Shown: positions 17,278-60,553 of the stretch, one piece after another
Numbering within the stretch: the stretch's first letter is position 1
How the letters are laid out: every line of letters starts with the position of its first letter
Assembly: GCA_046758325.1 (NCBI GenBank)
Contig: JBHHZZ010000003.1
Location: 12,381 to 76,380 of the forward strand
Direction of reading: 5' to 3'
DNA from: Thermoplasmata archaeon
GTDB taxonomy: Archaea > Thermoplasmatota > Thermoplasmata > RBG-16-68-12 > JAJISG01
DNA length: 64,000 bases
The notes under the pieces: generated by a model
The model's input: the letters and a program-made list of their open reading frames with translations, nothing else
What the model was told of the DNA's origin: nothing
Database searches by the model: none
Translations under genes and position numbers: made by a program

Positions 17278-17290
17278 CGCAGTTGCCCGG

Positions 17291-31268: not shown

Positions 31269-32555
31269 TCACATGCTGAAGGCGCCGTTGACGAGATCGG
31301 CGATGGCCCCCGGAATGGAGACTGTCTTGGCGGCCTCCTTCAGCAGCACGCACGCCACCTTCTCCTTGGGAAGGCCGTCGATGGTATATATCCTCTCCAT
31401 CAGGTTGCAGAGAAGCTTGGGGTACGAGGAGTACAGCCTGGGGTTCTTGAGGTAGTAGGGAGCCCTTCGGAAGGTCACCAGATCCTCCATCACGGAATGA
31501 GCGCGAAGATTGGACTCGTAGGCCCGAAGGGTGGTGGCGGAGAAGTCTCCTGCTTCGCGGGCGAGCTCATAGGTTTCCGCCGCCGCCATGCCAGACACGA
31601 TGGCCAGGTCGACCCCGCGGAAGGTATACCCGTTATTGAGTAGGAAACCCGCGGCGTCACCCGCTACAAGGATACCGTCCCCGTAGCTTCGGGGCATCAT
31701 CCGGAGGCCCATGTCGGGTATCAGATGGGCCGAGTACTCCACGACCTTTCCACCCTTGACGAGACGCTGGACCACGGGGTGCAGCTTGAAGCTCTCCATC
31801 AGGTCGTGGATTTCGATCTTCCGCAGGCTTACCTCCTCCGCCTTGGCCACGATGCCTAGGGAAAGGGAGGACCTGTTTGTGTAGAGGAAACCACCGCCAG
31901 GGATCCAGTTGGTAGCATAGCCGGCGAAGACGTAGGCGCTCCCTTCCCCCTCTTCCAGGTTAAACCTTTCCTCGATGACCTTTTCAGGCAACTCGACTGT
32001 CTCCTTAACGCCGATGGAGACCTCGCCAGGGAGCATCTCGTCCCTGAGCCCGGCCGACTTGGCCAGGAGGGAGAGAGCACCGTCCGCCACTATCACCAGG
32101 TCGGCCTGAACCCTGTCCTTGCCTGCCACGAGCCCCTTCACGAGGCCGTGCTCCCGCCAGAGGTCGTCCACTTTTATCCCGGTAATCATCATAGCTCCGG
32201 CTTCTTCGGCCCGCTTTGCCAGCCACTTATCGAAGGAGCCTCGAAGGGCTGTGAAGCTGAGTACTGGGGACCCCGCGGTCCTCGGGGAGTCGTACTGGAG
32301 GGTTACCGCCGAATCGTCGTCCAGGAAGACCATGTTCTCCCGCGTGATGAAACGCTCGATGGGGGCCCTGTTCCAATCGTCCCCCAGGAGCTTCCTGAGG
32401 GAGTAGGAATAGATGCGGCCGCCGAACATGTTCTTCTGTCCAGGGATGTTGGCCCTCTCAACCAGGAGGACCTCGTAACCTCGCTTCGCAAGGGAGTAAG
32501 CGGCGGAACTGCCAGCGGGCCCCGCTCCCACCACGGCCGCATCGAACCTCTCCAT
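31269..32555 (-). CDS. Geranylgeranyl reductase family FAD-dependent oxidoreductase
   Basis: FAD motif DAAVVGAGPAGSSAAYSLAKRGYEVLLVER, second motif VAGDAAGF, and FixC/GGR family length. Start chosen at MERFD (32555). The track ORF extends to 32612. Confidence 0.8.
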   Translation of the reverse strand: MERFDAAVVGAGPAGSSAAYSLAKRGYEVLLVERANIPGQKNMFGGRIYSYSLRKLLGDDWNRAPIERFITRENMVFLDDDSAVTLQYDSPRTAGSPVLSFTALRGSFDKWLAKRAEEAGAMMITGIKVDDLWREHGLVKGLVAGKDRVQADLVIVADGALSLLAKSAGLRDEMLPGEVSIGVKETVELPEKVIEERFNLEEGEGSAYVFAGYATNWIPGGGFLYTNRSSLSLGIVAKAEEVSLRKIEIHDLMESFKLHPVVQRLVKGGKVVEYSAHLIPDMGLRMMPRSYGDGILVAGDAAGFLLNNGYTFRGVDLAIVSGMAAAETYELAREAGDFSATTLRAYESNLRAHSVMEDLVTFRRAPYYLKNPRLYSSYPKLLCNLMERIYTIDGLPKEKVACVLLKEAAKTVSIPGAIADLVNGAFSM

Positions 32556-32794
32556 GTGATCACCGGACAAGCGGTTGAAGACCTTCACGGTAAAATAAGT
32601 TGGCAACTTCACGGTTCTGTGGCATAATGGCTGGCGTTCGTCAGCCTAAGGAATCCCCGGAGGAATCTCCTCCGACTGGTAACCGCTGTAATCCGTGATC
32701 AGGGGCCTGAGGATACTGACTAGCGAATTGCCAAGGTTTCGAAATCTGTTGAACAATGCTTAAGAAAGCAGGGGAAGCATGGTGCCCCGATAGC

Positions 32795-33778
32795 ATGAGA
32801 GGCACGACAGCATCTCTGTTGGCGGGAGTGTTGCTCCTGTCCCTCCTGGCTCCTCTGGTTGCAGGCCAAGAGACTTCGGAGGGGGAGGACGGAAGCGATC
32901 AAATGGATGAGGAGTTTGAGAGCGCGTCCCGAAGGGTGGAAGTGGACGAGCTGGAAGGTGAGGTGGAAGTCAGATCCGTAGGTGCTGATGGTGACAGAAT
33001 TAGGATGAGGATCAGGGCCGATGAGGCGGAGTTGAGGCTCGACTTCCGCACGCCCGAGACCAACTTCACGGAGGTGGAGCTGGAGCTGGAGTTCAGGTCC
33101 ATCAGGGAGTACTTGGATGAGAACGGCGACGGGAGATTTGACAAGGGCGAGACGGTGGTTCAGGACTTCAGGGTGGACGACATGCCCTTCAGCGGTCCCG
33201 TTATCGAGGATGTCCCCGACGGGAGCAGGATTGAGCTCACGTATGAGACCTCAGGGTTCACCTTCAGGCTGATATTCTGGGTCTTCGGCAACCAGACCAT
33301 TCTCAACGGCACCCTGGTGAAGCCAACTGAGGTCAAGTTCGACCTCGCCGTACAGGATTTCCCCTTTGAGAGGGAGGACAGCAACCTCGCCGTCATCTTC
33401 AAGCTGGAGACTGAGGTGGAGCCCAGGATGAGTTCCGAGGCCGATCAGGAGATGCTGGAGGCCCTGAGCGGACGGTACGAGGGGTTCTTCCGCTGGTCCA
33501 CTGTGGCCGAGGTCGATGGTAGGACGGTGGACGTCAACTCCACAGTGATCAAGGTCGAGACGGAGATTGGCGGGGAGTTCGAGGTCGAGCGGACCATCGC
33601 TTTGTCCTATCCTCAAGGCTCCAGCGTGGTCCACGATCCAGTGGTCGGGATTGCGATGGCGACGACTGGCATGGAGATGGGGCTCCTTGGACTCATGATC
33701 ATAGTCGTTACTGTGGTCCTGATTTCCGTCGGGGTCGCTATCTGGCTGGCAAGTCGACACAGGGAGGCCAGAAGCTGA
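32795..33778 (+). CDS. Secreted acidic surface protein, paralog 1 (signal peptide, DxDxDG Ca-binding loop, C-terminal TM anchor)
   Basis: Features seen directly: signal peptide MRGTTASLLAGVLLLSLLAPLVAG, EF-hand/dockerin-like loop DENGDGRFDKGE, several N-x-S/T sequons, conserved YPQGSSVVHDPVVG, and a C-terminal TM segment with basic tail (IIVVTVVLISVGVAIWLASRHREARS). About 35-40% identical to the next gene. Confidence 0.7.
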   Translation: MRGTTASLLAGVLLLSLLAPLVAGQETSEGEDGSDQMDEEFESASRRVEVDELEGEVEVRSVGADGDRIRMRIRADEAELRLDFRTPETNFTEVELELEFRSIREYLDENGDGRFDKGETVVQDFRVDDMPFSGPVIEDVPDGSRIELTYETSGFTFRLIFWVFGNQTILNGTLVKPTEVKFDLAVQDFPFEREDSNLAVIFKLETEVEPRMSSEADQEMLEALSGRYEGFFRWSTVAEVDGRTVDVNSTVIKVETEIGGEFEVERTIALSYPQGSSVVHDPVVGIAMATTGMEMGLLGLMIIVVTVVLISVGVAIWLASRHREARS

Positions 33779-33947: not shown

Positions 33948-34967
33948 ATGAGAGGAGTCTGCGCCGGAATCCTCGCCACTGTCCTGCTCGTATCCATCCT
34001 CGGGCCCTTGGCGGCTACGGAGTCCTCCGATGACAGGGCGCTGAGCCATGAGGATGAGGAGTTCGAGAGCAGGCCGAGGACCGTGGAGGTAGATGTCGGT
34101 GGCGACAGGGTTGAGTTCAGGTCCATCGGGGCCGAAGGGGACAGGCTCAGGATCGAGTTCAGGGCCCAGGACGGGGAGTTGAGGCTCGACTTCACGGTAC
34201 CAGAGAACAACACCGTGGAGGTCCAGCTCAGGCTGACGGTGGAGGCCCTGATGGAGTACATGGATGGGGACGAATCGGGCAACTTCGACGTTGGGGAGGA
34301 GGTGGTTCAGACCCTCGAGGTTGACGAGATGCCCTTCGAGGTGGGTCTGCTGGAGGCAGTCGACGACGGGTATATAATCGGAGTGGATTACTTCCTGCAG
34401 GAGACGGACCTTCTCTTCGGCCTGACCTTCTGGATATTCGGGAACGACACTCCTCTTGAAGGAGCCATCATCCATCCGACAGAGGTGAAGTTCGATGTGG
34501 GCATCTCTTTCTTCCCCTTCGAGAGAGAGTTGAGCAGCCTGGCCCTGGTGGTGGAGATGCAGACAGAGGTTGAACCCAGGGCCAACTTCACCGGGACAGA
34601 GGTGGAGCTGGAGGCCGTCGGGGACAGGTACGAAGGGTTCTTCCGGTGGAACAAGATGGCGGAAGTCGACGAGACTCCCGCGACAGTAGGGTCAGCCGTC
34701 ATTAAGCGGGAAACGGAGTTTGAAGGCGGCCTGACAGAGCTGGAGGTCGAGAGAACCGTGGTACTGTCATACCCGCATGGCACGACAATCTTCCACGACC
34801 CAGCGGTGGGCGTCGCCGCTGTACCGATTCTGCCACCACCTCCACCGCCGCCCGAGGAACCGACGCCTATTCCACCCCTCAACGTCCTCACCTATGGGAT
34901 TATGCTCGGGTTTTCATCCCTTTTCGTGGTGGCGACCCTCCTTGCACGGCGAAGGAAGAGCGGCTAG
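33948..34967 (+). CDS. Secreted acidic surface protein, paralog 2
   Basis: Signal peptide MRGVCAGILATVLLVSILGPLAA, loop DGDESGNFDVGEE, and conserved block YPHGTTIFHDPAVG. A poly-Pro linker (PPPPPPPEEPTPIPP) precedes the TM segment and RRRKSG tail. Colinear similarity to paralog 1 throughout. Confidence 0.7.
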   Translation: MRGVCAGILATVLLVSILGPLAATESSDDRALSHEDEEFESRPRTVEVDVGGDRVEFRSIGAEGDRLRIEFRAQDGELRLDFTVPENNTVEVQLRLTVEALMEYMDGDESGNFDVGEEVVQTLEVDEMPFEVGLLEAVDDGYIIGVDYFLQETDLLFGLTFWIFGNDTPLEGAIIHPTEVKFDVGISFFPFERELSSLALVVEMQTEVEPRANFTGTEVELEAVGDRYEGFFRWNKMAEVDETPATVGSAVIKRETEFEGGLTELEVERTVVLSYPHGTTIFHDPAVGVAAVPILPPPPPPPEEPTPIPPLNVLTYGIMLGFSSLFVVATLLARRRKSG

Positions 34968-35395: not shown

Positions 35396-35938
35396 TTGAG
35401 GGAGGTCCTGGATCTCGAGAGTCGCCGAAGAATCTTCGAGTTCCTGCAGCAGTATCCGGGCCTGCACCTGAGGGAGCTGGAGAGGCAGCTCGGCATGGAC
35501 GTGCGGGCCCTGAGGTACCACCTGGAGTTCTTGGAGAAACATGAGGCCATCACTTCCCTGATGCAGGAGGGATACCTCCGCTACTATCCCCGGCAGTGGG
35601 ACGAGGGCTACTTCCGGGAGAGGGTAGGGGCCTTCGAGAAGAGGGTGCTGGGGCTGCTGAGGCAGCGAATGCCCCTACACCTCATCCTTCTTCTCCTCGA
35701 CCAAGGGGAGATGTCCAGCGAGGAGCTCCAGACACATGCGGGGATAGCCCCATCGACCCTGAGCTACCATCTAAAGAAGTTGTCCAAGCTCCAGCTCATC
35801 GAGTCTAGGACTGAGGGCAAGAGGAAGATATACCGGGCAGGAGACCCTCAGGCCGTGGTCCAGATCCTGATGAAGTACAGGCCCACAAGGGACCTCGTAG
35901 AGGACTTCCTGGAACTCTGGGAGAAGATCGGACTATGA
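35396..35938 (+). CDS. Transcriptional regulator with two tandem winged helix-turn-helix domains (ArsR-like)
   Basis: Two repeats of the HTH-wing pattern: RRIFEFLQQYPGLHLRELERQLGMDVRALRYHLEFLEKHEAI, and LHLILLLLDQGEMSSEELQTHAGIAPSTLSYHLKKLSKLQLIESRTEGKRKIY. Confidence 0.6.
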   Translation: MREVLDLESRRRIFEFLQQYPGLHLRELERQLGMDVRALRYHLEFLEKHEAITSLMQEGYLRYYPRQWDEGYFRERVGAFEKRVLGLLRQRMPLHLILLLLDQGEMSSEELQTHAGIAPSTLSYHLKKLSKLQLIESRTEGKRKIYRAGDPQAVVQILMKYRPTRDLVEDFLELWEKIGL

Positions 35939-36376
35939 GTCGTGGGCCTGCGAGAGGCCCTCCACCATTCTCACGTTACTGTCGATACCCGCAATCATCT
36001 CTCGCTTTATCCTTGGCCAAAACAAGGGCAGGAAGGCCTTCAACCATCCCTTCCCCCTCACGTCCCCTAGAACTACGAGCTGCGTTCCCTCCACCACTGA
36101 GGCGAACATGTACTTCAGCCTGACCTGCACTATCTCGCCATAGTATTCGACCCAGTAGGAATCGGGCGGCCTGATCTTCACTCTTCCCTTCAACGTGAAG
36201 CGCCTGTTGAGGTACGCATACTCATCCTCTATCAGGAGCCCCCTTTCCATCCTGAAGGGGATGCGTCGAGAGAGTAGTGGGCCCTCCTCGCTCCCATCTT
36301 CCTCGGAGAAGGAGGTCCACCATCCGTATGCCAGGTCAAGGGGAACGTGGACGACAGTTACGTGGCGGAACCTCAT
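35933..36376 (-). CDS. Hypothetical protein, possibly SRPBCC-fold
   Basis: 147 aa. The weak resemblance to Bet v1/polyketide-cyclase-like folds is a guess. Clean ORF. Confidence 0.3.
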   Translation of the reverse strand: MRFRHVTVVHVPLDLAYGWWTSFSEEDGSEEGPLLSRRIPFRMERGLLIEDEYAYLNRRFTLKGRVKIRPPDSYWVEYYGEIVQVRLKYMFASVVEGTQLVVLGDVRGKGWLKAFLPLFWPRIKREMIAGIDSNVRMVEGLSQAHDS

Positions 36377-36525: not shown

Positions 36526-36533
36526 TTTTAATA
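36526..36533 (+). promoter_or_regulatory. TATA box (TTTTAATA) of the fixX-like gene
   Basis: An AT-rich octamer 26 bp upstream of the ATG at 36559, implying a leaderless or short-leader transcript. Confidence 0.45.
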
Positions 36534-36558
36534 GAACCCATTCTACCACTAGATACTG

Positions 36559-36873
36559 ATGGCAGAAGAGGCGGAGCCCACGGCAGAGAACAGACTCAGC
36601 GTGGACGACAGGGTCGGCCTCGATAGCTTCGAATTCGATGAGGAGCCCTTCATAACCGTAGAGACCCAGCTATGCCTCGGATGCGAGCTTAAGCCCTGCC
36701 TTTACGTGTGCCCCAGCAAGGTCTACCGTTGGGAACGTGACGGTCTCGTGTACAACACGGAAGGCTGCATCGAGCTAGGGGCCTGTTTCATCGTGTGTCA
36801 TGAGTTGGGCAACAAGGCTATCCACTGGAGCTACCCTCGTGGCAGCAAAGGCGTCCAGTTCAAGTTCGGGTAG
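36559..36873 (+). CDS. fixX: FixX-type ferredoxin-like protein
   Basis: 104 aa with a CLGCELKPCLYVCP ... CIELGACFIVC cysteine pattern, typical of FixX ferredoxin-like proteins. Confidence 0.65.
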   Translation: MAEEAEPTAENRLSVDDRVGLDSFEFDEEPFITVETQLCLGCELKPCLYVCPSKVYRWERDGLVYNTEGCIELGACFIVCHELGNKAIHWSYPRGSKGVQFKFG

Positions 36874-36966
36874 AGTTCATCTCAACACGATTTGTTGGCG
36901 GGCCACAGCCTCCAAGCCATCGCCTGACTGTCCCGAGCCCTCGCTTTGAAACTGATGGAACAACCT

Positions 36967-36974
36967 CTTTAAAG
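36967..36974 (+). promoter_or_regulatory. TATA box (TCTTTAAA) of the lipA-OADH-lipB operon
   Basis: Lies about 23-30 bp upstream of the lipA ATG at 36997. Confidence 0.4.
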
Positions 36975-36996
36975 GACCTCATCTATCCATCGACAT

Positions 36997-37902
36997 ATGC
37001 TCTCCCAGAGGAAGCCTGAATGGCTGAGGGTACGGCTCCCTGGGGGGGAGACTTATCTCGGCCTCAGGTCATTGCTACGCGACAAGGAACTCCACACCGT
37101 CTGCGAGGAGGCTCACTGTCCCAACGTGGGGGAGTGTTGGGGCGGCGGCACGGCAACTATCATGCTTCTCGGCGATGTGTGCACCCGGGGCTGCCGCTTC
37201 TGTGCGGTCAAGAAGGGAAACCCGAGGGGTCAGGTGGACCTATTCGAGCCGGTGAAGGTGGCTGAGGCTGTTTCCCGCCTCGGGCTGACGTATGTGGTCC
37301 TCACCTCGGTCGACAGGGACGACCTCCCTGATGGCGGCGCATCTCACTTCGCCGCGACCGTCCGCCGCCTCAAGGCCCGGGTCCCAGACATCATGGTGGA
37401 GGCCCTCGTTCCTGACTTCCAGGGGGATCTGGAGGCCGTAAGGACGGTGGTTGGGGCTGGGCCCGAGGTCCTTGCCCAGAATCTGGAGACAGTGGAGCGT
37501 CTGACTCACCCTGTCAGAGACCGGCGGGCCGGCTACCATCAAACCCTTACCGTCCTCCGGGAGGCCAAGGGGATGCGAGCCGACATCTTTACAAAGTCCT
37601 CCCTGATGCTAGGCTTAGGCGAGAAAGAGGAGGAGGTCCTTCAGGCCATGAAGGATCTGAGAAATGCTGGCGTCGATATCCTCACCCTCGGACAGTACTT
37701 GAGGCCTAGTCGAAGGCACGTAGAGGTCGACCGATACGTCCCGCCGGAGGAGTTCGACTACTATCGCGAGCGAGGGGAGGAGATGGGCTTCCTGTACGTC
37801 GCTGCGGGCCCCCTGGTAAGGAGTTCTTATAGAGCTGGCGAATATTTCTTGGAGAAGGTGCTTCATAAGGAGGTTCCTTTGGACGTGCCAGCCGGGAGGT
37901 AG
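36997..37902 (+). CDS. lipA: Lipoyl synthase
   Basis: Radical-SAM CxxxCxxC motif ([10 protein letters not shown]) plus the N-terminal auxiliary-cluster cysteines ([12 protein letters not shown]). Confidence 0.9.
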
Positions 37903-37906
37903 TTGT

Positions 37907-38983
37907 ATGGGAGAACTGCTTCAGATCGTCGGTCTTGACGGAAGCTACGATGAGAAGATGGAGCCGAAGCTGTCGGAGGAGGAGCTGCTCAAGCTTTACC
38001 GCTACATGGTCCTGACCCGCGTTTTGGACGCGAGGGCCATGACCCTCCAGAGGCAGGGCCGCATAGGCTTCTTCGTCCCCAGCCAGGGGGAGGAAGCCGT
38101 GCAGATAGGCAGCAGCTACGCCCTCAAGCCAGAGGACTGGATGATCCCCGCCTACAGGGAGCAGGGGGCGGCGCTGCTGAAGGGCTTCCCCCTCAAGACC
38201 CTTATCGCCCAGCTATACGGCAATCAGGAGGACATCCTCAAGGGCCGGCAGATGCCCAACCACTTCGGCAACAAGTCCATCAACTTCGTGACGCCGTCGA
38301 GCCCGGTGGGCACCCAGATGCCCATCGCCGTAGGCATCGCATGGGCCGCCAAGATCCAGGGACAAAAGGTCGTCTCCTTAGTGTACTTCGGCGATGGGGC
38401 TACTTCCCAGGGGGACTTTCACGTGGCCATGAACTTCGCTGGCGTATTCAAGGCCCCTGTGGTCTTCCTGTGCAAGAACAACCAGTGGGCCATCTCCCTT
38501 CCCTTCACCAGCCAGACCGCCTCGGAGAACATCGCTGTCAAGGCCCGGGCCTACGGCTTCGAAGGTACGAGAGTGGATGGAAACGACGTTCTGTCGGTCT
38601 ACGTGGCCTGCAGGGAGGCCGTGGAGGCCGCCCGGAGGGGGAAGGGACCCACCCTCATCGAGGCCGTCACCTATCGCATGGGCCCCCACTCTACCTCCGA
38701 CGATCCCAAGCGGTACAGGCCCGAAACGGAACTGGAGGAGTGGAAACAGAAGGACCCCATCCTGCGTTTCCAGCTCTACCTGAAGGCCAAGGGGATATGG
38801 AATGAGGAGCTGGAGGCTAGTGTACGTCAGGAAGTGGAGGATCTGGTGTCCGATGCAGTCAAGGCGGCCGAGGAGGTCGGGCCGCCGCCCCCAGAGACCA
38901 TCTTCGAGGATGTCTATGTGGATATGCCTTGGAACCTGGAGGAGCAGATGGACGAGTTCCTCAAGCTCATCAGGAGGTCCTAG
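37907..38983 (+). CDS. 2-oxoacid dehydrogenase E1 component, alpha subunit (TPP-dependent)
   Basis: TPP-binding motif YFGDGATSQGDFHVAMNFAG...FLCKNNQWAIS. Substrate (pyruvate versus branched-chain) not resolvable from sequence. Confidence 0.85.
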   Translation: MGELLQIVGLDGSYDEKMEPKLSEEELLKLYRYMVLTRVLDARAMTLQRQGRIGFFVPSQGEEAVQIGSSYALKPEDWMIPAYREQGAALLKGFPLKTLIAQLYGNQEDILKGRQMPNHFGNKSINFVTPSSPVGTQMPIAVGIAWAAKIQGQKVVSLVYFGDGATSQGDFHVAMNFAGVFKAPVVFLCKNNQWAISLPFTSQTASENIAVKARAYGFEGTRVDGNDVLSVYVACREAVEAARRGKGPTLIEAVTYRMGPHSTSDDPKRYRPETELEEWKQKDPILRFQLYLKAKGIWNEELEASVRQEVEDLVSDAVKAAEEVGPPPPETIFEDVYVDMPWNLEEQMDEFLKLIRRS

Positions 38984-39958
38984 ATGACGACCATGAATAT
39001 CGTTCAGGCCGTCAACGCGGCCCTGAAGGAGGAGATGGAGAGAGACGACCGCGTGGTAATCCTCGGCGAAGACGTGGGCAAGAACGGCGGCGTCTTCAGG
39101 TGCACCGAGGGGCTCTACGATCTCTTCGGCCCCGACAGGGTCATCGACACGCCCCTGGCCGAGTCCGGCATCATCGGGACGGCCATAGGAATGGCCTTGT
39201 ATGGCCTTAGACCGGTGCCGGAGATACAGTTCCTGGACTTCATCTACCCTGCCTTCGACCAGATCGTCAGCGAGGCGGCCAAGTTCAGGTACCGCTCTGG
39301 CGGGGAGTACCCTTGTCCCATCACGATTAGGACGCCATACGGAGGCGGCATCAAAGGAGGTCACTATCACTCCCAGAGCTCCGAGGCGTACTTCGCCCAC
39401 ACGCCAGGTCTCAAGGTGGTCATCCCCTCCAACCCCTACGACACCAAGGGGCTGTTGCTGGCCTCCATCCGCGACCCGGATCCCGTTCTCTTCATGGAGC
39501 CCAAGAAGGCCTACTTCGCCGTTCGGGGGGAGGTGCCGGAGGAGGAGTACACGGTGCCCCTCGGCCAGGCGAAGGTGCTGAGGGAGGGGGATGACGTCTC
39601 CGTCATCGCCTACGGGGCCATGATCCACGTCTGCATGGAGGCCGCCAAGAAGGCAGAGGAGGTGGGCATCGACACCGATGTGGTGGACCTTCGGACCCTC
39701 GTCCCCTTGGATGTGGAACCCGTCCTGAACTCCGTCCGGAAGACCGGCAGGGTTGTCATCGTGTACGAGGCACCGAAGACATGCGGCTACGGCGCTGAGA
39801 TAGCGGCCCTGATCGCGGAGAAGGCCATCGAGCACTTAGAGGCTCCCATCATCCGCGTGGCGGGTTTCGACACGCCCTTCCCTTATGCCTTGGAGGATCT
39901 CTACCTGCCCGACGCTGATCGGGTTCTGGACGCGGTTGAGAGAGCCTACGGCTTCTAG
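38984..39958 (+). CDS. 2-oxoacid dehydrogenase E1 component, beta subunit
   Basis: Transketolase-like pyrimidine-binding and C-terminal domains (VVILGEDVGKNGGVFRCTEGL...). Confidence 0.85.
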   Translation: MTTMNIVQAVNAALKEEMERDDRVVILGEDVGKNGGVFRCTEGLYDLFGPDRVIDTPLAESGIIGTAIGMALYGLRPVPEIQFLDFIYPAFDQIVSEAAKFRYRSGGEYPCPITIRTPYGGGIKGGHYHSQSSEAYFAHTPGLKVVIPSNPYDTKGLLLASIRDPDPVLFMEPKKAYFAVRGEVPEEEYTVPLGQAKVLREGDDVSVIAYGAMIHVCMEAAKKAEEVGIDTDVVDLRTLVPLDVEPVLNSVRKTGRVVIVYEAPKTCGYGAEIAALIAEKAIEHLEAPIIRVAGFDTPFPYALEDLYLPDADRVLDAVERAYGF

Positions 39959-39968
39959 GAGGTTGTAA

Positions 39969-41201
39969 ATGGCGAAGGAGTTCCGATTGCCGGACATAGG
40001 TGAAGGTCTCACGGAGGGGGAGATCGTCAAGTGGTTCGTGAAGGAAGGTCAGGAGGTGAAGGAGAACGACACGCTCGTGGAGGTGATGACGGAGAAGGTC
40101 AACGTGGAGATCCCGAGTCCCTTCACCGGTGTGGTCCTCCGGCTCTTGGCCCAGGAGGGGGAGGTAGTAAACGTGGGCCAGACCATCATCGTCATTGGTG
40201 AGGAGGGGGAGGAGGTTCCCGAGGTCGAAGCCGTGCCGGAGGCAGGGGCCGCGGAGGAGGTCCGAGAAGAGGTCCCGAAGGAGGCCCCTCCGGAGGTCGC
40301 GCCGCCACCGACGGGCAAGGTCCTGGCCACTCCCGCCGTTAGGCGTCTGGCTCGGGAACTGAGGGTGGATCTCGCGCAAGTCGAGGGAACTGGGCCTAGG
40401 GGAAGAGTCACGGAGGAGGACGTGCGAAGGCACTTGGAGGTCTCTGAGGTGAGGCCGGAGGTGGAGGCCGCTCCCCCGCCGGAGGAACTCGTGGAGAGAA
40501 TTCCCATCCGAGGTGTCCGGCGGGCCATCTCCGAGAAGATGCTCCGTTCCAAGAACACCGCCTCCCACTTCACCTACGTGGAGGAGGTGGACGTGACGGA
40601 GCTCGTAGCCCTGCGGGACAGGGCCAGAGCCTGGGCGGAGGAGAGAGGCGTCAAGCTCACCTACCTCCCCTTCATCCTAAAGGCCCTTGGAGCCGCCCTG
40701 AAGGAGCACCCCTCCCTCAACGCCACCGTGGACTGGGAGAAGGGCGAAATCCAAGTCAAGAAGTACTACAACATCGGCGTCGCTACCGCCACCGAGCAGG
40801 GCCTCATGGTTCCGGTTCTGAAGGGGGTGGACAAGAAGACGGTCCTGCAGATTGCCAGGGAGATTGAGGAGCTCTCGGAGAAAGCCAGGGACGGCAAGCT
40901 CTCCCTGAGTGACGTACATGACTCCACCTTCACGGTGACCAGCCTCGGAGCCCAGGGAGGTCTGTTGGCAACGCCTATCATCAACCACCCTGAGCTGGCC
41001 ATCCTGGGAGTTCACAAGATAGCCAAGAGGCCGGTGGTGAGGGACGGACAGATCGTCGTCCGGGAGGTGATGAACGTCAGTCTCTCCTTCGATCACCGAA
41101 TCATCGACGGCCACATCGGTGCTGCCTTCACCCAGACTCTGATCCGCTATCTCGAGGACCCCGGTCTTCTGCTGCTGCACGTGCTGGAGTCGGGGGAGTG
41201 A
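39969..41201 (+). CDS. Dihydrolipoamide acyltransferase (E2) with N-terminal lipoyl domain
   Basis: Lipoyl-lysine motif LVEVMTEKVNVEIPSP, an Ala/Pro/Glu-rich linker, a peripheral-subunit-binding domain, and catalytic DHRIIDG. Confidence 0.9.
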   Translation: MAKEFRLPDIGEGLTEGEIVKWFVKEGQEVKENDTLVEVMTEKVNVEIPSPFTGVVLRLLAQEGEVVNVGQTIIVIGEEGEEVPEVEAVPEAGAAEEVREEVPKEAPPEVAPPPTGKVLATPAVRRLARELRVDLAQVEGTGPRGRVTEEDVRRHLEVSEVRPEVEAAPPPEELVERIPIRGVRRAISEKMLRSKNTASHFTYVEEVDVTELVALRDRARAWAEERGVKLTYLPFILKALGAALKEHPSLNATVDWEKGEIQVKKYYNIGVATATEQGLMVPVLKGVDKKTVLQIAREIEELSEKARDGKLSLSDVHDSTFTVTSLGAQGGLLATPIINHPELAILGVHKIAKRPVVRDGQIVVREVMNVSLSFDHRIIDGHIGAAFTQTLIRYLEDPGLLLLHVLESGE

Positions 41202-42601
41202 TGGCGAGAAAAGTGAGGGCCGCCGTCATCGGGGCCGGTCCCGGGGGCTACGTTGCAGCTATCCGACTGGGACAGCTGGGCGTCGAGACCGTCCTCGTCG
41301 AGAAGGACAGGCTTGGCGGGGAATGCCTCAACTACGGCTGCATACCCTCCAAGGCCCTCATCTCCATCGGCAACCTGGTCCACAAGGTCCGCGGCGCGGA
41401 AGAGATGGGCGTGCACGTCAAGGGGCTGACCGTCGATGGGGAGAAGCTGCAGTCGTGGAAGCGAAAGGTGGTGGACCGCCTCGCCAAGGGTATTGCCGGC
41501 TTATGCAAGGCAGCGGGGGTCGAGGTCCTCTACGGCGACGCCACCTTCCTGTCGCCTCGCCGGCTGGAGGTGTCCTCCGCCGAGGGGATGACGACCCTGG
41601 AGGCGGAGAACTTCATCATCGCCACGGGATCAGAGCCCATACCGTTGAAGGGCTTCGATGTGGACGGCGAGCGAGTCATCTTCCCGAAGCAGTCGCTGGA
41701 GCTAACCAGGATTCCGGAGAGCATGACCATCATCGGCGGCGGCATCACCGGTCTGGAGATCGGGACCATGTACGCCAAGCTGGGTACCCGTGTGGTGGTT
41801 GTCGAGCTGCTAGACCAGCTCCTCCCGGGCATTCCTATGGATATCGTCAAGGTGATAGAGAGGTCTCTCAGGCGTCTCCGAGTGGAGTACCACGTCAAGT
41901 CGAAGGCCCTGGGCCTGGAGAAGAGAGAAGACAGGGTGGTCCTTGAGGTGGAGACCCCGCAGAAGAGGATCAGGATAGAGAGCGAGCTCCTCATGGTCTC
42001 AGTGGGGAGGAGGGCCAGGACCGCGGGGTTGGGCCTGGACAAGGCGGGGGTGAAGCTGAACTCCGAGGGCTTCATACGGGTGGACAAGCGCATGCAGACG
42101 AGCGCGCAGGGCATCTATGCCATCGGCGACGTCATCGGCGTGCCATACCTGGCCCACAAGGCCTCCAAAGAGGGAATCGTGGCGGCGGAGGCCATCGCTG
42201 GTCTCCCAAGTGAGGCGGACTTTAGGGCCATGCCCGCAGCCATCTTCACTGATCCCGAGATCGCCATGGTGGGTCTCTCCGAGGAGCAGGCGGGTGAGCA
42301 GGGCTACGATGTCGCAGTGGGCAAGTTTCCCTTCTCCGCATCGGGCAGGGCCTTAACCACCGGCAAGGCCGATGGGTTTGTCAAGGTCGTCGCCGAGAGG
42401 TCTACTCGAGAGGTCCTGGGGGTGCAGATAGTGGGTCCCGAGGCCTCAGACCTCATCAGCGAGGCGGCCCTGGCCATCGAGATGGGGGCCGTGGCAGATG
42501 ACATAGCCCTCACGGTTCACCCCCATCCCACCCTTCCCGAGAGTTTCATGGAGGCTGCGGAGGACGTCCTAGGAAAGGCGATTCACATACCGAAGCGATG
42601 A
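41198..42601 (+). CDS. lpdA: Dihydrolipoamide dehydrogenase (E3)
   Basis: FAD motif and redox disulfide GGECLNYGCIPSKAL, plus a C-terminal HPHPTLPE dimerisation motif. Confidence 0.9.
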   Translation: MMARKVRAAVIGAGPGGYVAAIRLGQLGVETVLVEKDRLGGECLNYGCIPSKALISIGNLVHKVRGAEEMGVHVKGLTVDGEKLQSWKRKVVDRLAKGIAGLCKAAGVEVLYGDATFLSPRRLEVSSAEGMTTLEAENFIIATGSEPIPLKGFDVDGERVIFPKQSLELTRIPESMTIIGGGITGLEIGTMYAKLGTRVVVVELLDQLLPGIPMDIVKVIERSLRRLRVEYHVKSKALGLEKREDRVVLEVETPQKRIRIESELLMVSVGRRARTAGLGLDKAGVKLNSEGFIRVDKRMQTSAQGIYAIGDVIGVPYLAHKASKEGIVAAEAIAGLPSEADFRAMPAAIFTDPEIAMVGLSEEQAGEQGYDVAVGKFPFSASGRALTTGKADGFVKVVAERSTREVLGVQIVGPEASDLISEAALAIEMGAVADDIALTVHPHPTLPESFMEAAEDVLGKAIHIPKR

Positions 42602-43281
42602 AACGAAGCTGCGTACTGGTGGATTTGGGTCTCGTCGACTATGGCGAAGCGTGGGAACTCCAGAAGCGCCTGGTGGCCGAGCGCCTTGAAGACGCTGTTT
42701 CGGATATCCTCCTTCTCGCGGAGCACATCCCTACCTACACGGTAGGCCGCCGCGGGAGCGCAGACGGGCTGGAGAAGCTGGGACTGCCCGTCTATGAGGT
42801 GGAAAGGGGGGGAGACGTGACGTACCACGGTCCTGGGCAGCTTGTTGGATATCCCATCCTTTCCCTTCCAAGGGGCAAGCTGGATGTGAGGGCGTACGTG
42901 ACTGACTTGGAGGAGGTTCTGATGAGGACCGCGGCGGACTTCGACGTGGAGGGGGGCAAGGGACCGCATGCTGGACTCTGGGTCGGCTCGAGGAAGCTCG
43001 CCTCCATCGGAGTTGCCATAAAGCACTACGTCACCTATCACGGCTTTGCTCTCAACGTGAATCCCGACCTCTCCCCCTTTAGGAGGATCAGACCTTGTGG
43101 GCTGGAGGGAGCTTCGATAACCTCCTTGGAGGAGATCCTCCACCGTCCTCTTGTCATGGAGGAGGTGAAGACGTCCCTGACCAGACACTTCTCAAAGGTC
43201 TTCGGGGTGGATATGCTGCCATCTGGAAAGGTTGCTCGTAAGGACATATCCTTGAGCGGACCCACCGTCTCCAGCGCATGA
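42598..43281 (+). CDS. lipB: Lipoyl(octanoyl) transferase
   Basis: BPL/LPL catalytic domain with motifs RGGDVTYHGPGQLVGYPIL and KHYVTYHGFALNV. Overlaps the E3 stop by 4 nt. Confidence 0.8.
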   Translation: MKRSCVLVDLGLVDYGEAWELQKRLVAERLEDAVSDILLLAEHIPTYTVGRRGSADGLEKLGLPVYEVERGGDVTYHGPGQLVGYPILSLPRGKLDVRAYVTDLEEVLMRTAADFDVEGGKGPHAGLWVGSRKLASIGVAIKHYVTYHGFALNVNPDLSPFRRIRPCGLEGASITSLEEILHRPLVMEEVKTSLTRHFSKVFGVDMLPSGKVARKDISLSGPTVSSA

Positions 43282-43498: not shown

Positions 43499-44638
43499 GT
43501 GAAGAAGGTCGGCTTCTTGGTGAACCCGATTGCTGGCATGGGCGGCAGGGTCGGCCTCAAGGGAACTGACGGCGTCGTGGAGGAGGCCCAGGCCATGGGA
43601 GCCAAGCCTGTGGCTCCTTCAAGGGCGATCCAGGCCCTGCGTCCCTTTCGGGGACTAGATGTTGCTCGGGAGGTCCATTGGCTGACGTGTGGCCCTCCCA
43701 TGGGGGAGACAGAGCTGAAGGCCGTCTCCTTTGAGTCCGATGCCTATGAAGTCCTCTACAGGCCCCGCGCCAAGACCGAAGCGAAGGATACGACGAAGGC
43801 TGCCGACGCTTTTGCGCGAGCCGGGGCCGAGATCCTGCTTTTCTGTGGTGGCGACGGCACGGCACGCGACATCTTCGATTCCATCGATGCGAGGATGCCC
43901 ATCTTGGGCATTCCCTCCGGCGTCAAGATGCACTCAGGGGTCTTCGGCGTCAATCCGGAGGCGACGGCCACCATCTTGGATCGTTTCCTCTCAGGCGAGC
44001 TCTCCACAGGCGAGGCAGAGATCATGGACCTGGATGAGGATCGATACAGGAGGGGCGAATGGTCCATACGGCTGTACGGGCTTGCCATTACTCCCCAGGA
44101 GCCCAACCTGGTGCAAACGGGCAAGCTGATGGTGGAGGAGGTGGCCGACGAGGCCATCAGGGAGGAGATGGCGGATTACATAGAAGAGCTGATGGAGGAG
44201 GAGCCCGACACCATGTACATCTTCGGTCCGGGGGGGACCATCCAAGGCATCTGCCGCCGTCTAGGCCTGGAGGGGACGCTTCTAGGGATCGATGCCGCCA
44301 TTTCCAAGAACCTCGTGGGGAGAGACCTCAATGAAGACGGCCTCCTGAAGCTCCTGGAATCACATCCCAAGGCGAAGCTCGTCCTCAGCCCCATAGGCGC
44401 TCAGGGCTTCATCCTGGGAAGAGGGAACCTGCAGCTCAGCCCGGAGGTCCTCCGGACCATAGGGGCCCACAACATCATCATCGTGGCCACCCCCTCGAAG
44501 CTGAGAGCGACACCCTTCCTGAGGGTGGATACGGGTGATTCGGAGCTCGATGGCTACTTCGCGGAGAAGAACCACCTCCTCGTGGTGATAGGCTACAGGA
44601 CCATGAAGCTGCATCCCATCGGAGGCTTCCAGGACTGA
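43499..44638 (+). CDS. ATP-NAD kinase family protein (COG3199-type predicted polyphosphate/ATP NAD kinase)
   Basis: GGDGT motif (LFCGGDGTARD) in the NAD-kinase/DAG-kinase-like fold. GTG start. Confidence 0.6.
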   Translation: MKKVGFLVNPIAGMGGRVGLKGTDGVVEEAQAMGAKPVAPSRAIQALRPFRGLDVAREVHWLTCGPPMGETELKAVSFESDAYEVLYRPRAKTEAKDTTKAADAFARAGAEILLFCGGDGTARDIFDSIDARMPILGIPSGVKMHSGVFGVNPEATATILDRFLSGELSTGEAEIMDLDEDRYRRGEWSIRLYGLAITPQEPNLVQTGKLMVEEVADEAIREEMADYIEELMEEEPDTMYIFGPGGTIQGICRRLGLEGTLLGIDAAISKNLVGRDLNEDGLLKLLESHPKAKLVLSPIGAQGFILGRGNLQLSPEVLRTIGAHNIIIVATPSKLRATPFLRVDTGDSELDGYFAEKNHLLVVIGYRTMKLHPIGGFQD

Positions 44639-44743
44639 GGCCTTGAAACGCGTGACTGCGGGTATGAGTGGGACTTCCTAGTCTTTACCGCAATTAGATA
44701 AGCCTATTATATGTTCAGCTCTCTCCTCAGCCCGGAGGCCCCC

Positions 44744-45790
44744 ATGACGGAGAAGATGCCTGCGGCGGTGAAGACGAAACCGGCTCCTGAAAGCATCGAG
44801 CTGATGGACGTGCCGAAACCAAAGCCGGCCGCTGGTGAGGTCCTCATCAGGGTCCGCATAGCCTCCATCTGCGGCACGGATGTCCACATCTACAACTGGG
44901 ACGAATGGGCCAGAGCTCGCATCAGGCCGCCTCTGATACAGGGCCACGAGTTCGCGGGAGAGGTGGTGGAGCTGGGCCCGCATGCATCCCTCGTCCAAGT
45001 CGGGGACTACGTGTCCGCTGAGGGCCACATCGCCTGCGGGACCTGCTACCAGTGCAGAACGGGTCAGGCCCACATCTGCCCCAACGTCGAAATCATAGGC
45101 GTCGATCGGGACGGGGCCTTCGCGGAGTACGTGGCGGTTCCCGAGCAGAACGTCATCGTGAATCCCGCGGACCTGCCGTTGGAGATGGCTACCATACAGG
45201 ACCCCTTCGGTAATTCGGTCCAGACGGTCTTCTCCGCCGATGTGCCTGGAAACTACGTGGCGGTCTTCGGCCTCGGTCCCACAGGCCTCATGAGCGTCGC
45301 TCTCTGTCGTGCGGTCGGTGCGGCCAAGATATTCGCCGTGGGCCGCAAGAATGAGTATAGGATTAAGTTGGCGAAGGAACTGGGTGCCGACGTGACACTG
45401 AGGTCCACCGACGCATTGTCCTCCATTATTGATAAGGAAACTGACGGTAGAGGCGTGGACCACGTGTTGGAGATGTCCGGGAGCCCCGAGGCCTTTAACA
45501 TGGGACTGAAGGTCCTCAGGGCTGGGGGCGGCATGCACGTCCTGGGCATCTATCCGGCACCGTTCATGGTGGATGTCTCCTCGGACATCGTCACCAGGGG
45601 TGTCCACCTCCAGGGCATCCACGGCAGGCTCATGTATGAGGACTGGTACAGGATGGCGGGCCTGTTGACCTCAGGAAAGCTCAACCTCAAGCCCATCATA
45701 ACCCACCGCTTTCCCTTCGAGGAGTTCCTGGAGGCCATGGAGGTCATGAGATCGGGAAAGTGCGGCAAAGTGGTCGTCTATATGGAGTAG
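44744..45790 (+). CDS. tdh: L-threonine 3-dehydrogenase (Zn-dependent MDR family)
   Basis: Zn-ADH catalytic motif CGTDVHIY...GHEFAG and structural-zinc cysteines (CGTCYQCRTGQAHIC). Directly followed by a Kbl-type gene. Confidence 0.8.
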   Translation: MTEKMPAAVKTKPAPESIELMDVPKPKPAAGEVLIRVRIASICGTDVHIYNWDEWARARIRPPLIQGHEFAGEVVELGPHASLVQVGDYVSAEGHIACGTCYQCRTGQAHICPNVEIIGVDRDGAFAEYVAVPEQNVIVNPADLPLEMATIQDPFGNSVQTVFSADVPGNYVAVFGLGPTGLMSVALCRAVGAAKIFAVGRKNEYRIKLAKELGADVTLRSTDALSSIIDKETDGRGVDHVLEMSGSPEAFNMGLKVLRAGGGMHVLGIYPAPFMVDVSSDIVTRGVHLQGIHGRLMYEDWYRMAGLLTSGKLNLKPIITHRFPFEEFLEAMEVMRSGKCGKVVVYME

Positions 45791-45800
45791 GAGGCCCGAA

Positions 45801-46985
45801 ATGGTAGGTCCCACGAGTTTCCTTAGGGAGGAGTACGAGAGGCTGGTGAAGAGTAACCTGGATTGGAGGCTCCGGGTGCTCGAGGGGCCATCGGCACCCC
45901 ATAGCGTCGTGGATGGTAGGGAGCTCATCATGCTCTGCTCCAACAACTACCTCAACCTGAGCAACCATCCCAAGGTGAAGGAGGCAGCCAAGAAGGCGGT
46001 GGAGAGGTACGGGGCCGGCTCAGGGTCCGTCAGGGCCATTGCAGGCAACATGGACATTCACGAGGAGTTGGAGCGAAGGATAGCCGAGTTCAAGGGTTGC
46101 GAAGCCGCCCTCGTCTATTCGGCGGGATTCGCGGCCAACTCGGGCCTCATCCCCCAGCTGGTGGACAAGGGAGATGTGGTCATCAGCGACGAGCTGAACC
46201 ACGGCAGCATCATCGATGGAGTGCGCCTGACAAAGGCGGACCGCATGATCTACAAGCACTGCGACGTGGCCGATCTGAGGAGGACCCTTGAAGAGGCAAA
46301 GAGGGCGGGCTATCGCCGAATCCTCATCGCTACGGACGGCGTCTTCAGCATGGACGGTGACGTGGCCCCTGTGGACGAGATCGTGAAACTCGCGGAGGAG
46401 TTCGGCGCCGTCACCTTCGTGGACGACGCCCACGGCGAAGGTGTTCTGGGAGATGGTGGTCGCGGTATCGCCTCCCATTTCCACGTGGAGGGTCGGGTAG
46501 ACATTGAGATGGGCACCTTCTCCAAGGCCTTCGGTGTCATGGGTGGATACGTTGCCGGAAGCGAGGACCTGAGGCTGTATGCCCTGAACAAGTCTAGAAC
46601 CTGGCTGCTCTCGGCCTCACATCCGCCCGCCGTCGTCGCCGCCTGCATAGCGGCCATCGAAGTGCTGGAGACGGAGCCCGAGTGGGTCCGGAAGCTATGG
46701 GACAACACCAAGTACTTCAAGGAAGAGTTAAGGTCGATGGGCTTCGATACCGGGATAAGCGTGACGCCCATAACGCCTGTAATCGTGGGAGAGAGTGCGG
46801 TTGCCAAGAAGCTGAGTGAACGTCTCCTCGAGCTGGGCGTGTTCGCTCTGCCCATCGTGTATCCTATGGTGGCCCGCGACAGAGCCAGGATAAGGACAAT
46901 AATGAACGCTGCCCTCACGCGGGAGGACCTCGACAGCGCCCTCGGCGCCTTCGACAGGGCTGGGAAGGAGCTGGGCATCATCTGA
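45801..46985 (+). CDS. kbl: 2-amino-3-ketobutyrate CoA ligase (glycine C-acetyltransferase)
   Basis: Alpha-oxoamine synthase family (PLP-lysine region TFSKAFG). Operon context with tdh supports Kbl over BioF. Confidence 0.8.
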   Translation: MVGPTSFLREEYERLVKSNLDWRLRVLEGPSAPHSVVDGRELIMLCSNNYLNLSNHPKVKEAAKKAVERYGAGSGSVRAIAGNMDIHEELERRIAEFKGCEAALVYSAGFAANSGLIPQLVDKGDVVISDELNHGSIIDGVRLTKADRMIYKHCDVADLRRTLEEAKRAGYRRILIATDGVFSMDGDVAPVDEIVKLAEEFGAVTFVDDAHGEGVLGDGGRGIASHFHVEGRVDIEMGTFSKAFGVMGGYVAGSEDLRLYALNKSRTWLLSASHPPAVVAACIAAIEVLETEPEWVRKLWDNTKYFKEELRSMGFDTGISVTPITPVIVGESAVAKKLSERLLELGVFALPIVYPMVARDRARIRTIMNAALTREDLDSALGAFDRAGKELGII

Positions 46986-59136: not shown

Positions 59137-60549
59137 GTGAAGGACCCAGACTTGGCGGATTTTGCTGTGGATCTCGCTCAACGCAGTGGGGCGACCTACG
59201 CGGAGGCCCGTTATGAAGAGCAGACACAGGAGCTCTTCTTCCTGAAGAATGGCATTCTAGACGCCCTCTATGTGGGCAAGAGCCGTGGGATAGGAGTGCG
59301 AGTCCTCTACAAGGGCAGCCTGGGCTTCGCTGCCACGAACGAGATGTCAAGGGCGGCCGTTCGCGGGGTCGTGGGCGAGGCCATCAAGATTGCCCGCACA
59401 GGGCGTCGAAAGGATCCCATAGTCTTCGCGAAGGAACCCTCCGTCGAAACGACCTGGGCGGTCCCCGAGAAGAAGCCTATCTTCGATACCCCGATAGAGG
59501 AGAAGCTTGACGCCATCATGCATGTGGACCGGGAGCTCGGGGCCACGGGTCTGGACATCCCTGCGAGGTTCTTCCAATGGTCAGGCAAGACGATTGAGAA
59601 GTACTTCGTCAACGGCGAGGGGACAAAGATTCGATCCTACTCCCCTCGCAGTCGCCTTCTGTTCTTTCTGACGGTGGCCCACGACGGAGATGCCGAGCAG
59701 GCTCACAGGAACTACGGCTACGGCGGCGGCTGGGAAGCTTATGAAGAGTGGGAGACGCTGAACAGAGTCCTCCGGGAGGCCCGCTCCATGGAGAAAACCC
59801 TGAAGGAGGGGAAGAAGTCCCCTGAGGGGAAGATGGACCTGGTTGCAGGACCCCAGGTCTCAGGCATCGCAAGCCACGAGTCCTGCGGCCACCCCACGGA
59901 GGCAGACCGCGTTCTAGGACGCGAAGCATCTCAGGCTGGCAAGTCTTTCATCACGCCAGAGTCCACTGGCATGCGTGTGGGGAGCGAGGTAGTCAATGTT
60001 GTCGATGATCCTACCGTTCCAAACACGATTGCGCATTACAGGTACGACGATGAAGGCGTTGAGGCCCGCCGCCGCTACCTTTACAGGGAGGGCATCGTCC
60101 ATGAGTTCCTGCAGAACAGGGAGACGGCCGCGGTTATGGGCACCAGGAGCAATGCCGCCTCCCGGGCTGTCAACTACAACGTCGAAGCCATAGTTCGAAT
60201 GGCGAATACCTTCGTGGAGCCTCAGGACTGGTCAGTGGAGGAGATGATTGAGGACGTGAAACAAGGGGTGTACATGAAGTCCTTTATGGAGTGGAACATC
60301 GACGACAGGCGTTACAACGGCAAATACGTGGGCCGGGAGGCGTACCTGATTGAGAACGGGGAGGTCAAGCTCCCCGTGCGGCGGCCGGTTGTGGAGCTGA
60401 CGACGCCCACTTTCTGGTCCGCGGTGGACGCCGTTGGCAAGGACCTGGAGTTCGAGGCGGGCTTCTGTGGGAAATCCGATCCAGAGCAGAGCCTTGATGC
60501 CATGCTGGGAGGTCCGACCATCCGTCTCCGAGACATCTATCTGAGGTGA
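59137..60549 (+). CDS. tldD: TldD metalloprotease (pair 2)
   Basis: HESCGHPTEADRVLGRE motif. 470 aa. Confidence 0.85.
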   Translation: MKDPDLADFAVDLAQRSGATYAEARYEEQTQELFFLKNGILDALYVGKSRGIGVRVLYKGSLGFAATNEMSRAAVRGVVGEAIKIARTGRRKDPIVFAKEPSVETTWAVPEKKPIFDTPIEEKLDAIMHVDRELGATGLDIPARFFQWSGKTIEKYFVNGEGTKIRSYSPRSRLLFFLTVAHDGDAEQAHRNYGYGGGWEAYEEWETLNRVLREARSMEKTLKEGKKSPEGKMDLVAGPQVSGIASHESCGHPTEADRVLGREASQAGKSFITPESTGMRVGSEVVNVVDDPTVPNTIAHYRYDDEGVEARRRYLYREGIVHEFLQNRETAAVMGTRSNAASRAVNYNVEAIVRMANTFVEPQDWSVEEMIEDVKQGVYMKSFMEWNIDDRRYNGKYVGREAYLIENGEVKLPVRRPVVELTTPTFWSAVDAVGKDLEFEAGFCGKSDPEQSLDAMLGGPTIRLRDIYLR

Positions 60550-60553
60550 TTGG

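Follow-up and report, generated by a model that had tools for sequence, protein, structure and literature searches.

In archaea, the octanoyltransferase LipB was found in nine species, all of which also have the lipoyl synthase LipA and the E2 subunit of a 2-oxoacid dehydrogenase complex (OADHC), in a survey that used a Ferroplasma LipB as query (Borziak et al., 2014; PMC3904984). LipB/LipA and LipM/LipA combinations were later reported across archaeal genomes (Tanabe et al., 2023; PMC10332631). The octanoyl donor in these systems is unknown, archaea generally lacking acyl carrier protein (ACP) (PMC10332631; also PMC3904984). We analyzed a 64-kb stretch of contig JBHHZZ010000003.1 from a Thermoplasmata archaeon (hereafter the window), in which seven co-directional open reading frames (ORFs) at 36559-43281 (+) encode a FixX-type ferredoxin, LipA, the OADHC subunits E1alpha, E1beta, E2, and E3, and LipB. 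The overall explanation that we favor, with reasonable confidence, is that the genes from lipA to lipB would form a six-gene operon and that fixX would be a separate gene whose product pairs with the flavoprotein FixC.

An operon with LipB, LipA, and E2 in an archaeon is an ordinary and already documented kind of arrangement. A preliminary description of this DNA had contrasted it with the LplA-dependent Thermoplasma acidophilum; this contrast holds, but the locus is not unusual for that, as LipB, LipA, and E2 were catalogued together in 2014 and 2023. Like the systems in those surveys, the window has LipB, LipA, and a lipoylatable E2 in one genome. Unlike them, it comes from an uncultured lineage that the surveys do not name, and its lipoylation genes are physically part of the OADHC operon.

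The T. acidophilum complex comes from the same class (Thermoplasmata) and shares with the window a four-component E1alpha-E1beta-E2-E3 operon, a heterotetrameric E1, and a single lipoyl domain with a VMT(D/E)KV context. The lipoyl domain of the window E2 matches the Thermoplasma structure 2L5T, and its catalytic domain matches 3RQC/4OFS. The two systems differ in lipoylation, which is carried out by a bipartite LplA in T. acidophilum, whereas lipA and lipB bracket the operon here, suggesting a cofactor that is endogenous and not scavenged. They also differ in that the window E2 catalytic domain is nearer to the pyruvate dehydrogenase (PDH) E2 of Geobacillus (1B5S, 242 bits) than to that of Thermoplasma (181 bits). 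LplA was not found among the scanned ORFs of the 64-kb window and 6.6 kb of extra left flank, and ACP was not found among the scanned window ORFs.

Genes for lipoylation and 2-oxoacid oxidation

Profile searches and motif inspection identified each component of the cluster. LipA (36997-37902, +), a radical S-adenosylmethionine (SAM) enzyme encoded by the first gene of the proposed six-gene operon, scores 408.6 bits against TIGR00510 (cutoff 310), and its auxiliary-cluster cysteines (C36x4C41x5C47), radical-SAM cysteines (C62x3C66x2C69), and C-terminal RSSY275 are intact. E1alpha (37907-38983, +), the alpha subunit of the thiamine pyrophosphate (TPP)-dependent 2-oxoacid decarboxylase, scores 442 bits against TIGR03181 (cutoff 411), matches PF00676 at 1.4e-103, and has an intact TPP-binding GDG..NN motif at residue 162. 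E1beta (38984-39958, +) has Transket_pyr and Transketolase_C domains (PF02779 and PF02780) and scores 346 bits against NF006667 (cutoff 321). The E2 dihydrolipoyl acyltransferase (39969-41201, +) consists of one lipoyl domain (PF00364; K43 in the context VMTEKV), a peripheral-subunit-binding domain (PF02817), and a catalytic domain (PF00198) with DHRIIDG375. E3 dihydrolipoyl dehydrogenase (41198-42601, +) scores 538 bits against TIGR01350 (cutoff 409) and retains the redox disulfide C43LNYGC48 and the H441..E448 dyad in HPHPTLPE. LipB (42598-43281, +), encoded by the last gene of the operon, scores 158 bits against TIGR00214 (cutoff 84) and 189 bits against NF010925; its RGGDVTYHGPGQ / RGGDVTYHGPGQ motif at 70 and the catalytic dyad K133 and C167 (PCG) are intact.

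The junctions between consecutive genes from fixX to lipB are 123, 4, 0, 10, -4, and -4 nt, and GGAGGT precedes E1alpha, E1beta, and E2. These profile matches, together with the intact state of every catalytic motif checked, bear out the earlier proposal that E1alpha, E1beta, E2, E3, LipA, and LipB are all encoded together. As judged from its sequence, the cluster encodes a complete, functional-looking lipoate-dependent OADHC of the heterotetrameric-E1 type, with an E2 lipoyl domain that is not degenerate.

The archaeal host named in the preliminary description is also correct. An identical LipA has been deposited as a "Thermoplasmata archaeon" metagenome-assembled genome (MAG), and the nearest species-level genomes are MAGs of uncultured Thermoplasmatota, some of them labeled Methanomassiliicoccales, with FixX identity of 84-88%. 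Exact copies of the locus are present on Logan assemblies of SRR29324601 and SRR29324603. The best 120 LipA homologues are all at least 70% identical, and every labeled one is from a Thermoplasmata/Thermoplasmatota-type MAG; with only in-clade matches among these 120, the search is uninformative on deeper origin. Because LipA is at least 70% identical to more than a hundred protein clusters, of which every labeled one is Thermoplasmata-type, and synteny extends down to 59% FixX identity, the lipoylation genes are long-resident in the clade and not a recent transfer. The preliminary description had considered that the genes might be recently transferred and accompany an E2 without a functional lipoyl domain; LipA has instead been in the clade for long, and the K43 lipoyl domain is intact.

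Promoter-like elements upstream of fixX and lipA

Strict TATA-like hexamers are rare in the window (only 10 in 128 kb, counting both strands), and of 50 gene starts, those of fixX and lipA are the only two to have one at -40..-22. The TATA box previously noted upstream of fixX is real: the TATA-like element TTTTAATAG (36526-36534, +) lies 33 nt before the ATG, and its TTTTAA is invariant in five relatives. A second TATA box that had been overlooked, CTTTAAAGG, lies 29 nt before the ATG of lipA. A conserved block resembling a transcription factor B recognition element (BRE) and TATA box, ATGGAACAACCTCTTTAAAGG (36956-36976, +), is located 22-41 nt before the lipA ATG. In an alignment with the closest relatives, the window, L077, and L012 share this block without a difference (loci are numbered as in our genome comparison), and the remaining fixX-lipA spacer has diverged. 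An A/T-rich TATA-like pentamer occurs at -38..-18 in 32 of 40 lipA loci and 40 of 52 fixX loci, compared with 4 of 2000 random coding positions, a background that understates the intergenic rate because it is drawn from coding sequence.

The preliminary description treated all seven genes as one operon. We rejected a single seven-gene operon on the basis of the conserved TATA/BRE-like footprint that belongs to lipA itself. No Shine-Dalgarno sequence was found before fixX, so the fixX transcript is probably leaderless. Overall, fixX and lipA-E1alpha-E1beta-E2-E3-lipB are probably separate, leaderless transcription units.

In the proposed mechanism, the first unit (lipA-E1alpha-E1beta-E2-E3-lipB, 36997-43281) would be expressed as a leaderless mRNA from the TATA/BRE-like element before lipA, and its internal genes would be Shine-Dalgarno-led or overlapping. 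Judging by family membership and motifs, LipB would load Lys43 of the E2 lipoyl domain with an octanoyl group, into which LipA would then insert two sulfurs. By the same reasoning, E1 would decarboxylate a 2-oxoacid, E2 would form the acyl-CoA, and E3 would pass the electrons to NAD+.

FixX, FixC, and their neighborhoods in related genomes

The EtfABCX complex of Thermotoga maritima reduces ferredoxin using NADH and menaquinone, and its EtfX is a structural subunit with clusters on the high-potential branch to quinone (PMC10734219). EtfX contributes to the pocket of the electron-transferring FAD, and EtfX cysteine mutants block holoenzyme assembly (PMC10734219). The fixX gene of the window (36559-36873, +) encodes a 104-aa FixX/EtfX-type ferredoxin-like protein, identified by its match to EtfX, a family alignment, and its neighbors in 80 genomes. 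Among solved structures, it is best matched by chain D of 7KOE (EtfX of T. maritima EtfABCX; E 1e-17), with residues 14-104 aligned to 2-92. The best NCBIfam match, the FixX model NF011993, is weak (45.5 bits, below the cutoff of 166), and this model is narrow, being built on enterobacterial FixX. A generic 2x[4Fe-4S] ferredoxin was considered and rejected, as the full-length match to 7KOE_D and the context analysis favor EtfX/FixX.

In an alignment of 23 FixX homologues, the C-terminal W-x-YPRG-xx-GV-x-F-x-x-G tail is invariant. T. maritima EtfX has eight cysteines that form a two-[4Fe-4S] pattern, but the archaeal FixX family does not have this pattern: seven cysteines are invariant, and Leu73 takes the place of T. 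maritima Cys64, which ligates the proximal [4Fe-4S] cluster. The second FixX cluster may be a [3Fe-4S] cluster or may have a non-Cys ligand.

FixC, an ETF:quinone oxidoreductase flavoprotein of the electron-transfer flavoprotein (ETF)-linked FixC/EtfC type, is encoded at 31269-32612 (-), 4 kb upstream of fixX on the opposite strand and beyond the genes covered by the preliminary description. The gene is intact. FixC scores 412.6 bits against NF007450 and 394.5 bits against NF007542 (FixC), both full length; its best structure match is chain C of 7KOE (E 1.5e-74), and a precomputed PF26311 ETF-QO_FixC_C domain is present. By these matches, the window is predicted to encode both subunits of a quinone-reducing EtfCX module. 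Similar to T. maritima EtfABCX and Fix(ABCX), FixX aligns with chain D and FixC with chain C, and relatives of the window encode bifurcating-type EtfAB beside FixC. Unlike those systems, the window is without etfAB, and its fixX and fixC do not share an operon.

Five genes lie between fixC and fixX. Two encode acidic paralogues of about 340 aa (32756-33778 and 33948-34967, both +), both of which have a signal or anchor at the N-terminus, a transmembrane segment at the C-terminus, and no Pfam or NCBIfam match. The others encode a 90-aa membrane protein (DUF7471), an ArsR/HVO_0163-type helix-turn-helix regulator (35396-35938), and a 147-aa ORF without a family (35933-36376, -).

Gene neighborhoods were compared at 80 loci, with one genome scanned per species, and FixC, EtfA, EtfB, LipA, LipB, and E1-E3 were placed around each fixX by tblastn. 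Forty-nine loci were readable on both sides; 26 of these have both FixC and LipA, 10 have FixC only, two have LipA only, and 11 have neither, giving FixC as a neighbor of FixX in 36 and LipA in 28. FixC is encoded upstream (within 4.5 kb) at 41 of the 58 loci with at least 2.5 kb of upstream sequence, and a same-strand lipA is directly downstream of fixX at 38 of the 64 loci with at least 1.5 kb of downstream sequence. Between fixX and lipA the spacer is 49 to 1178 nt long, often 56-68 nt, and in L006 it holds a 188-aa ORF.

Most Thermoplasmata relatives have a supercluster in which E1alpha-E1beta-E2-(x)-E3-LipB is followed by EtfA-EtfB-FixC(-V4R) on the opposite strand and FixX-LipA-E1alpha'(-GNAT) on the first strand. 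It is kept in about 26 species-level genomes, with synteny down to 59% FixX identity (examples are L016, L019, L024, L025, L028, L036, L041-L045, L049, L055, and L057-L060, and also L003 and L006). We found no description of this OADHC-Etf/Fix-LipA supercluster in the searchable literature, and it is a modest new observation. The second E1alpha (E1alpha') directly after lipA lacks a neighboring E1beta and is apparently an orphan. In 31 loci fixC and fixX are separated by a V4R-domain gene, and 23 loci have a GNAT gene after E1alpha'. In a neighbor-joining tree of E1alpha, the window lineage forms its own clade with L066 and L067, and the tree does not assign the window E1alpha as orthologue to either the "operon-first" or the "post-lipA" copy of other Thermoplasmata.

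The EtfA and EtfB proteins of the relatives score about twice as high against bifurcating ETFs (5OL2, 4KPU, 6FAH, 7KOE) as against human or Paracoccus ETF; for EtfB, the scores are 159-188 bits against bifurcating ETFs and 83-93 bits against the non-bifurcating human and Paracoccus ETF. Acyl-CoA dehydrogenase (ACAD) genes flank etfAB in L009, L051, L054, and L064.

Outside the supercluster, fixC and fixX are abutting or 29 nt apart in Nitrososphaeria-type (L009-L011) and Asgard (L088, L091) genomes, beside etfAB and with no lipA nearby. The loci with neither gene are from Nitrososphaeria and Sysuiplasma-type genomes, where fixX is among unrelated genes. In L069-L087, a FixX homologue that is 51-62% identical is solitary (e.g., L070 9980-10291; L074 9995-10324; L082 9998-10306), with neighbors such as RadA and ribosomal protein S19e or EMG1 methyltransferase and GNAT; FixC, EtfAB, and LipA were not found within 10 kb of fixX at these loci. 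In the sub-lineage of the window (L012-L015, L077), etfAB is gone from the neighborhood and fixX is still just upstream of lipA; L015 has fixC directly divergent from fixX, and in L014 the two are separated by up to about 5.5 kb.

FixX is likely the partner of the FixC flavoprotein. We favor this explanation because of its homology to an EtfABCX subunit, the intact fixC nearby, the wider spread of fixC-fixX, and the separate promoters. In the proposed mechanism, the second transcription unit would be fixX with its own TATA box, and FixX and FixC would together serve as the quinone-reducing module of an ETF/FixABCX-type system. That fixX lies near lipA would be due to synteny inherited from the Thermoplasmata supercluster, which would tie 2-oxoacid oxidation, cofactor supply, and electron transfer to quinone at the level of pathway or regulon, with no dedicated FixX-LipA redox couple. 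Several observations weigh against pairing with FixC and separate transcription. A complete EtfABCX is not demonstrated here, as etfA and etfB were not found among the scanned ORFs of the window and the 6.6 kb of extra left flank. In the window lineage fixX stays 114-123 nt before lipA, with five unrelated genes between it and fixC; fixX-lipA is kept in L066 and L067, and L066 has no fixC in its readable 10 kb upstream. No strong terminator was found 3' of fixX, so read-through into lipA is possible, and the coding background used for the TATA-like pentamer belongs on the same side.

Two other roles for FixX were weighed, both of which would connect it to LipA. In the preliminary description, FixX was suggested as the LipA reductant, that is, a dedicated ferredoxin that would feed LipA electrons for reductive SAM cleavage and for this reason be encoded with lipA. 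Ferredoxins are physiological reductants of LipA/LIAS elsewhere, such as human FDX1 (PMC10470009). The same-strand adjacency in 38 of 64 genomes, often with the short spacer, agrees with such a role, as do its survival in the window lineage with fixC 4 kb away and etfAB gone and its retention in L066 and L067. However, FixX is homologous over its full length to a stoichiometric subunit of EtfABCX that has its clusters on the high-potential branch (PMC10734219), it carries the invariant C-terminal FixX motif, and an intact FixC is encoded nearby. Ten genomes have fixC-fixX without lipA, distant archaea have fixC-fixX in an operon, and of the two associations, fixC-fixX has the wider spread among archaea; lipA has its own conserved promoter, and the spacer can exceed 1 kb or hold another gene. 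Our literature search found no paper linking FixX with lipoyl synthase. On balance, this is the weaker reading, and we consider it improbable.

The other role is part of a coupling at system level. A bifurcating EtfABCX would send one electron from E3-made NADH to quinone (via FixX and FixC) and use the other to reduce a low-potential ferredoxin that serves LipA, which would explain why the genes travel together in Thermoplasmata. The conservation of the supercluster in about 26 species-level genomes and the closer similarity of the relatives' EtfA and EtfB to bifurcating ETFs are in its favor, and ferredoxin reduction driven by NADH and menaquinone is documented for EtfABCX (PMC10734219). However, this coupling rests on gene context, and etfAB is not in this window. 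The same synteny is more simply accounted for by electron flow from acyl-CoA through acyl-CoA dehydrogenase, ETF, and FixCX to quinone, with ACAD genes flanking etfAB, and LipA needs only catalytic amounts of reductant, which any cellular ferredoxin could supply. We therefore think it quite unlikely. That FixX was recruited for lipoyl synthase in this large clade of uncultured, probably aerobic Thermoplasmata in either way, alone or through the output of a bifurcating EtfABCX, is a doubtful proposition. If it were true, the fixX-lipA pair would mark a dedicated low-potential electron supply for an archaeal radical-SAM enzyme, the seven-Cys FixX would be adapted to it, and serving LipA would be a novel function of a Fix/Etf subunit.

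Substrate of the complex and significance of the locus

Bacterial complexes with a heterotetrameric E1, such as the Thermus thermophilus branched-chain 2-oxoacid dehydrogenase (BCKDH) E1 (1UM9) and Geobacillus stearothermophilus PDH (1W85, 3DUF), have the same domain order as the window proteins. Compared with solved structures, E1alpha scores 337 bits against the Thermus BCKDH-type E1 (1UM9), 300 against human BCKDH, 289 against Geobacillus PDH, and 160 against human PDH. The best structure match of E2 is Geobacillus PDH E2 (3DUF_I, 363 bits), and the Thermoplasma E2 core scores 181 bits. The NCBIfam cutoffs for PDH E1alpha and E1beta are passed, and no E2 equivalog cutoff is passed. By sequence, the complex belongs to the BCKDH/Gram-positive-PDH superfamily. 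Within it, similarity assigns no substrate because E1alpha and E2 point different ways, E1alpha being nearest to the branched-chain enzyme and E2 to the pyruvate enzyme; this agrees with the preliminary description, which did not choose among pyruvate, branched-chain, and other substrates.

By analogy, pyruvate and branched-chain 2-oxoacids may both be substrates of the complex. The characterized Thermoplasma complex, studied by Heath and colleagues (2004 and 2007), reportedly takes both kinds of substrate. We consider it less probable, although a reasonable alternative, that the complex acts strictly as a pyruvate dehydrogenase, or else as an acetoin dehydrogenase, and not as a branched-chain or broad-specificity enzyme. 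The E1alpha match to TIGR03181 ("PDH E1 alpha", 442 against 411 bits), the E1beta match to NF006667 ("PDH E1 beta"), and the nearness of E2 to Geobacillus PDH E2 (363 bits) agree with strict PDH activity, but E1alpha is nearest to the Thermus branched-chain E1 (337 bits), with human BCKDH next (300). The ETF/FixCX linkage in relatives would suit branched-chain catabolism that produces acyl-CoA, and the dual specificity said to be found in Thermoplasma likewise disfavors a strict PDH or acetoin enzyme. For acetoin, the point in favor is an NAD-kinase-like gene after lipB that presumably resembles AcoX; against it, E2 has a canonical 2-oxoacid_dh catalytic domain. Acetoin dehydrogenase itself was rejected, as E2 has the PF00198 domain and scores only 77 bits against NF011457 (cutoff 307), in the lipoyl region only.

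The gene after lipB (43499-44638, +) is 217 nt downstream and encodes a 379-aa ATP-NAD-kinase-family protein (PF01513 and PF20143, no NCBIfam match), which we take to be similar to AcoX of bacterial acetoin-dehydrogenase operons. Its position is kept in L013 and L077. Directly downstream of the OADHC cluster, 44711-46985 (+) encodes L-threonine 3-dehydrogenase (Tdh) and glycine C-acetyltransferase (Kbl), with the genes 10 nt apart; the two enzymes convert threonine to glycine and acetyl-CoA, and the pair is syntenic in L077 too.

Elsewhere, the window has two TldD/PmbA metalloprotease gene pairs (11069-13876, -, and 59137-61876, +) and a cluster resembling Mrp/Mbh-type multisubunit cation/proton antiporters (15001-20261, +; Proton_antipo_M twice, MbhD/MbhE, and MrpF domains). 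Urocanate hydratase HutU (901 bits) adjoins an FTCD_C-domain gene at 61924-63573 (-), an arrangement of histidine catabolism that is also present in L092. tRNA and Rfam scans of the 64-kb window found none.

Oxidation of 2-oxoacids through a lipoate-dependent complex fits an aerobic lifestyle of these uncultured Thermoplasmata in which amino acids or 2-oxoacids are oxidized, and the HutU and FTCD_C pair is consistent with an amino-acid-degrading one. The locus adds one lineage to the archaea that make lipoate endogenously for OADHC. These genomes are a natural place to seek the LipB octanoyl donor in archaea that lack ACP and the physiological reductant of archaeal LipA.

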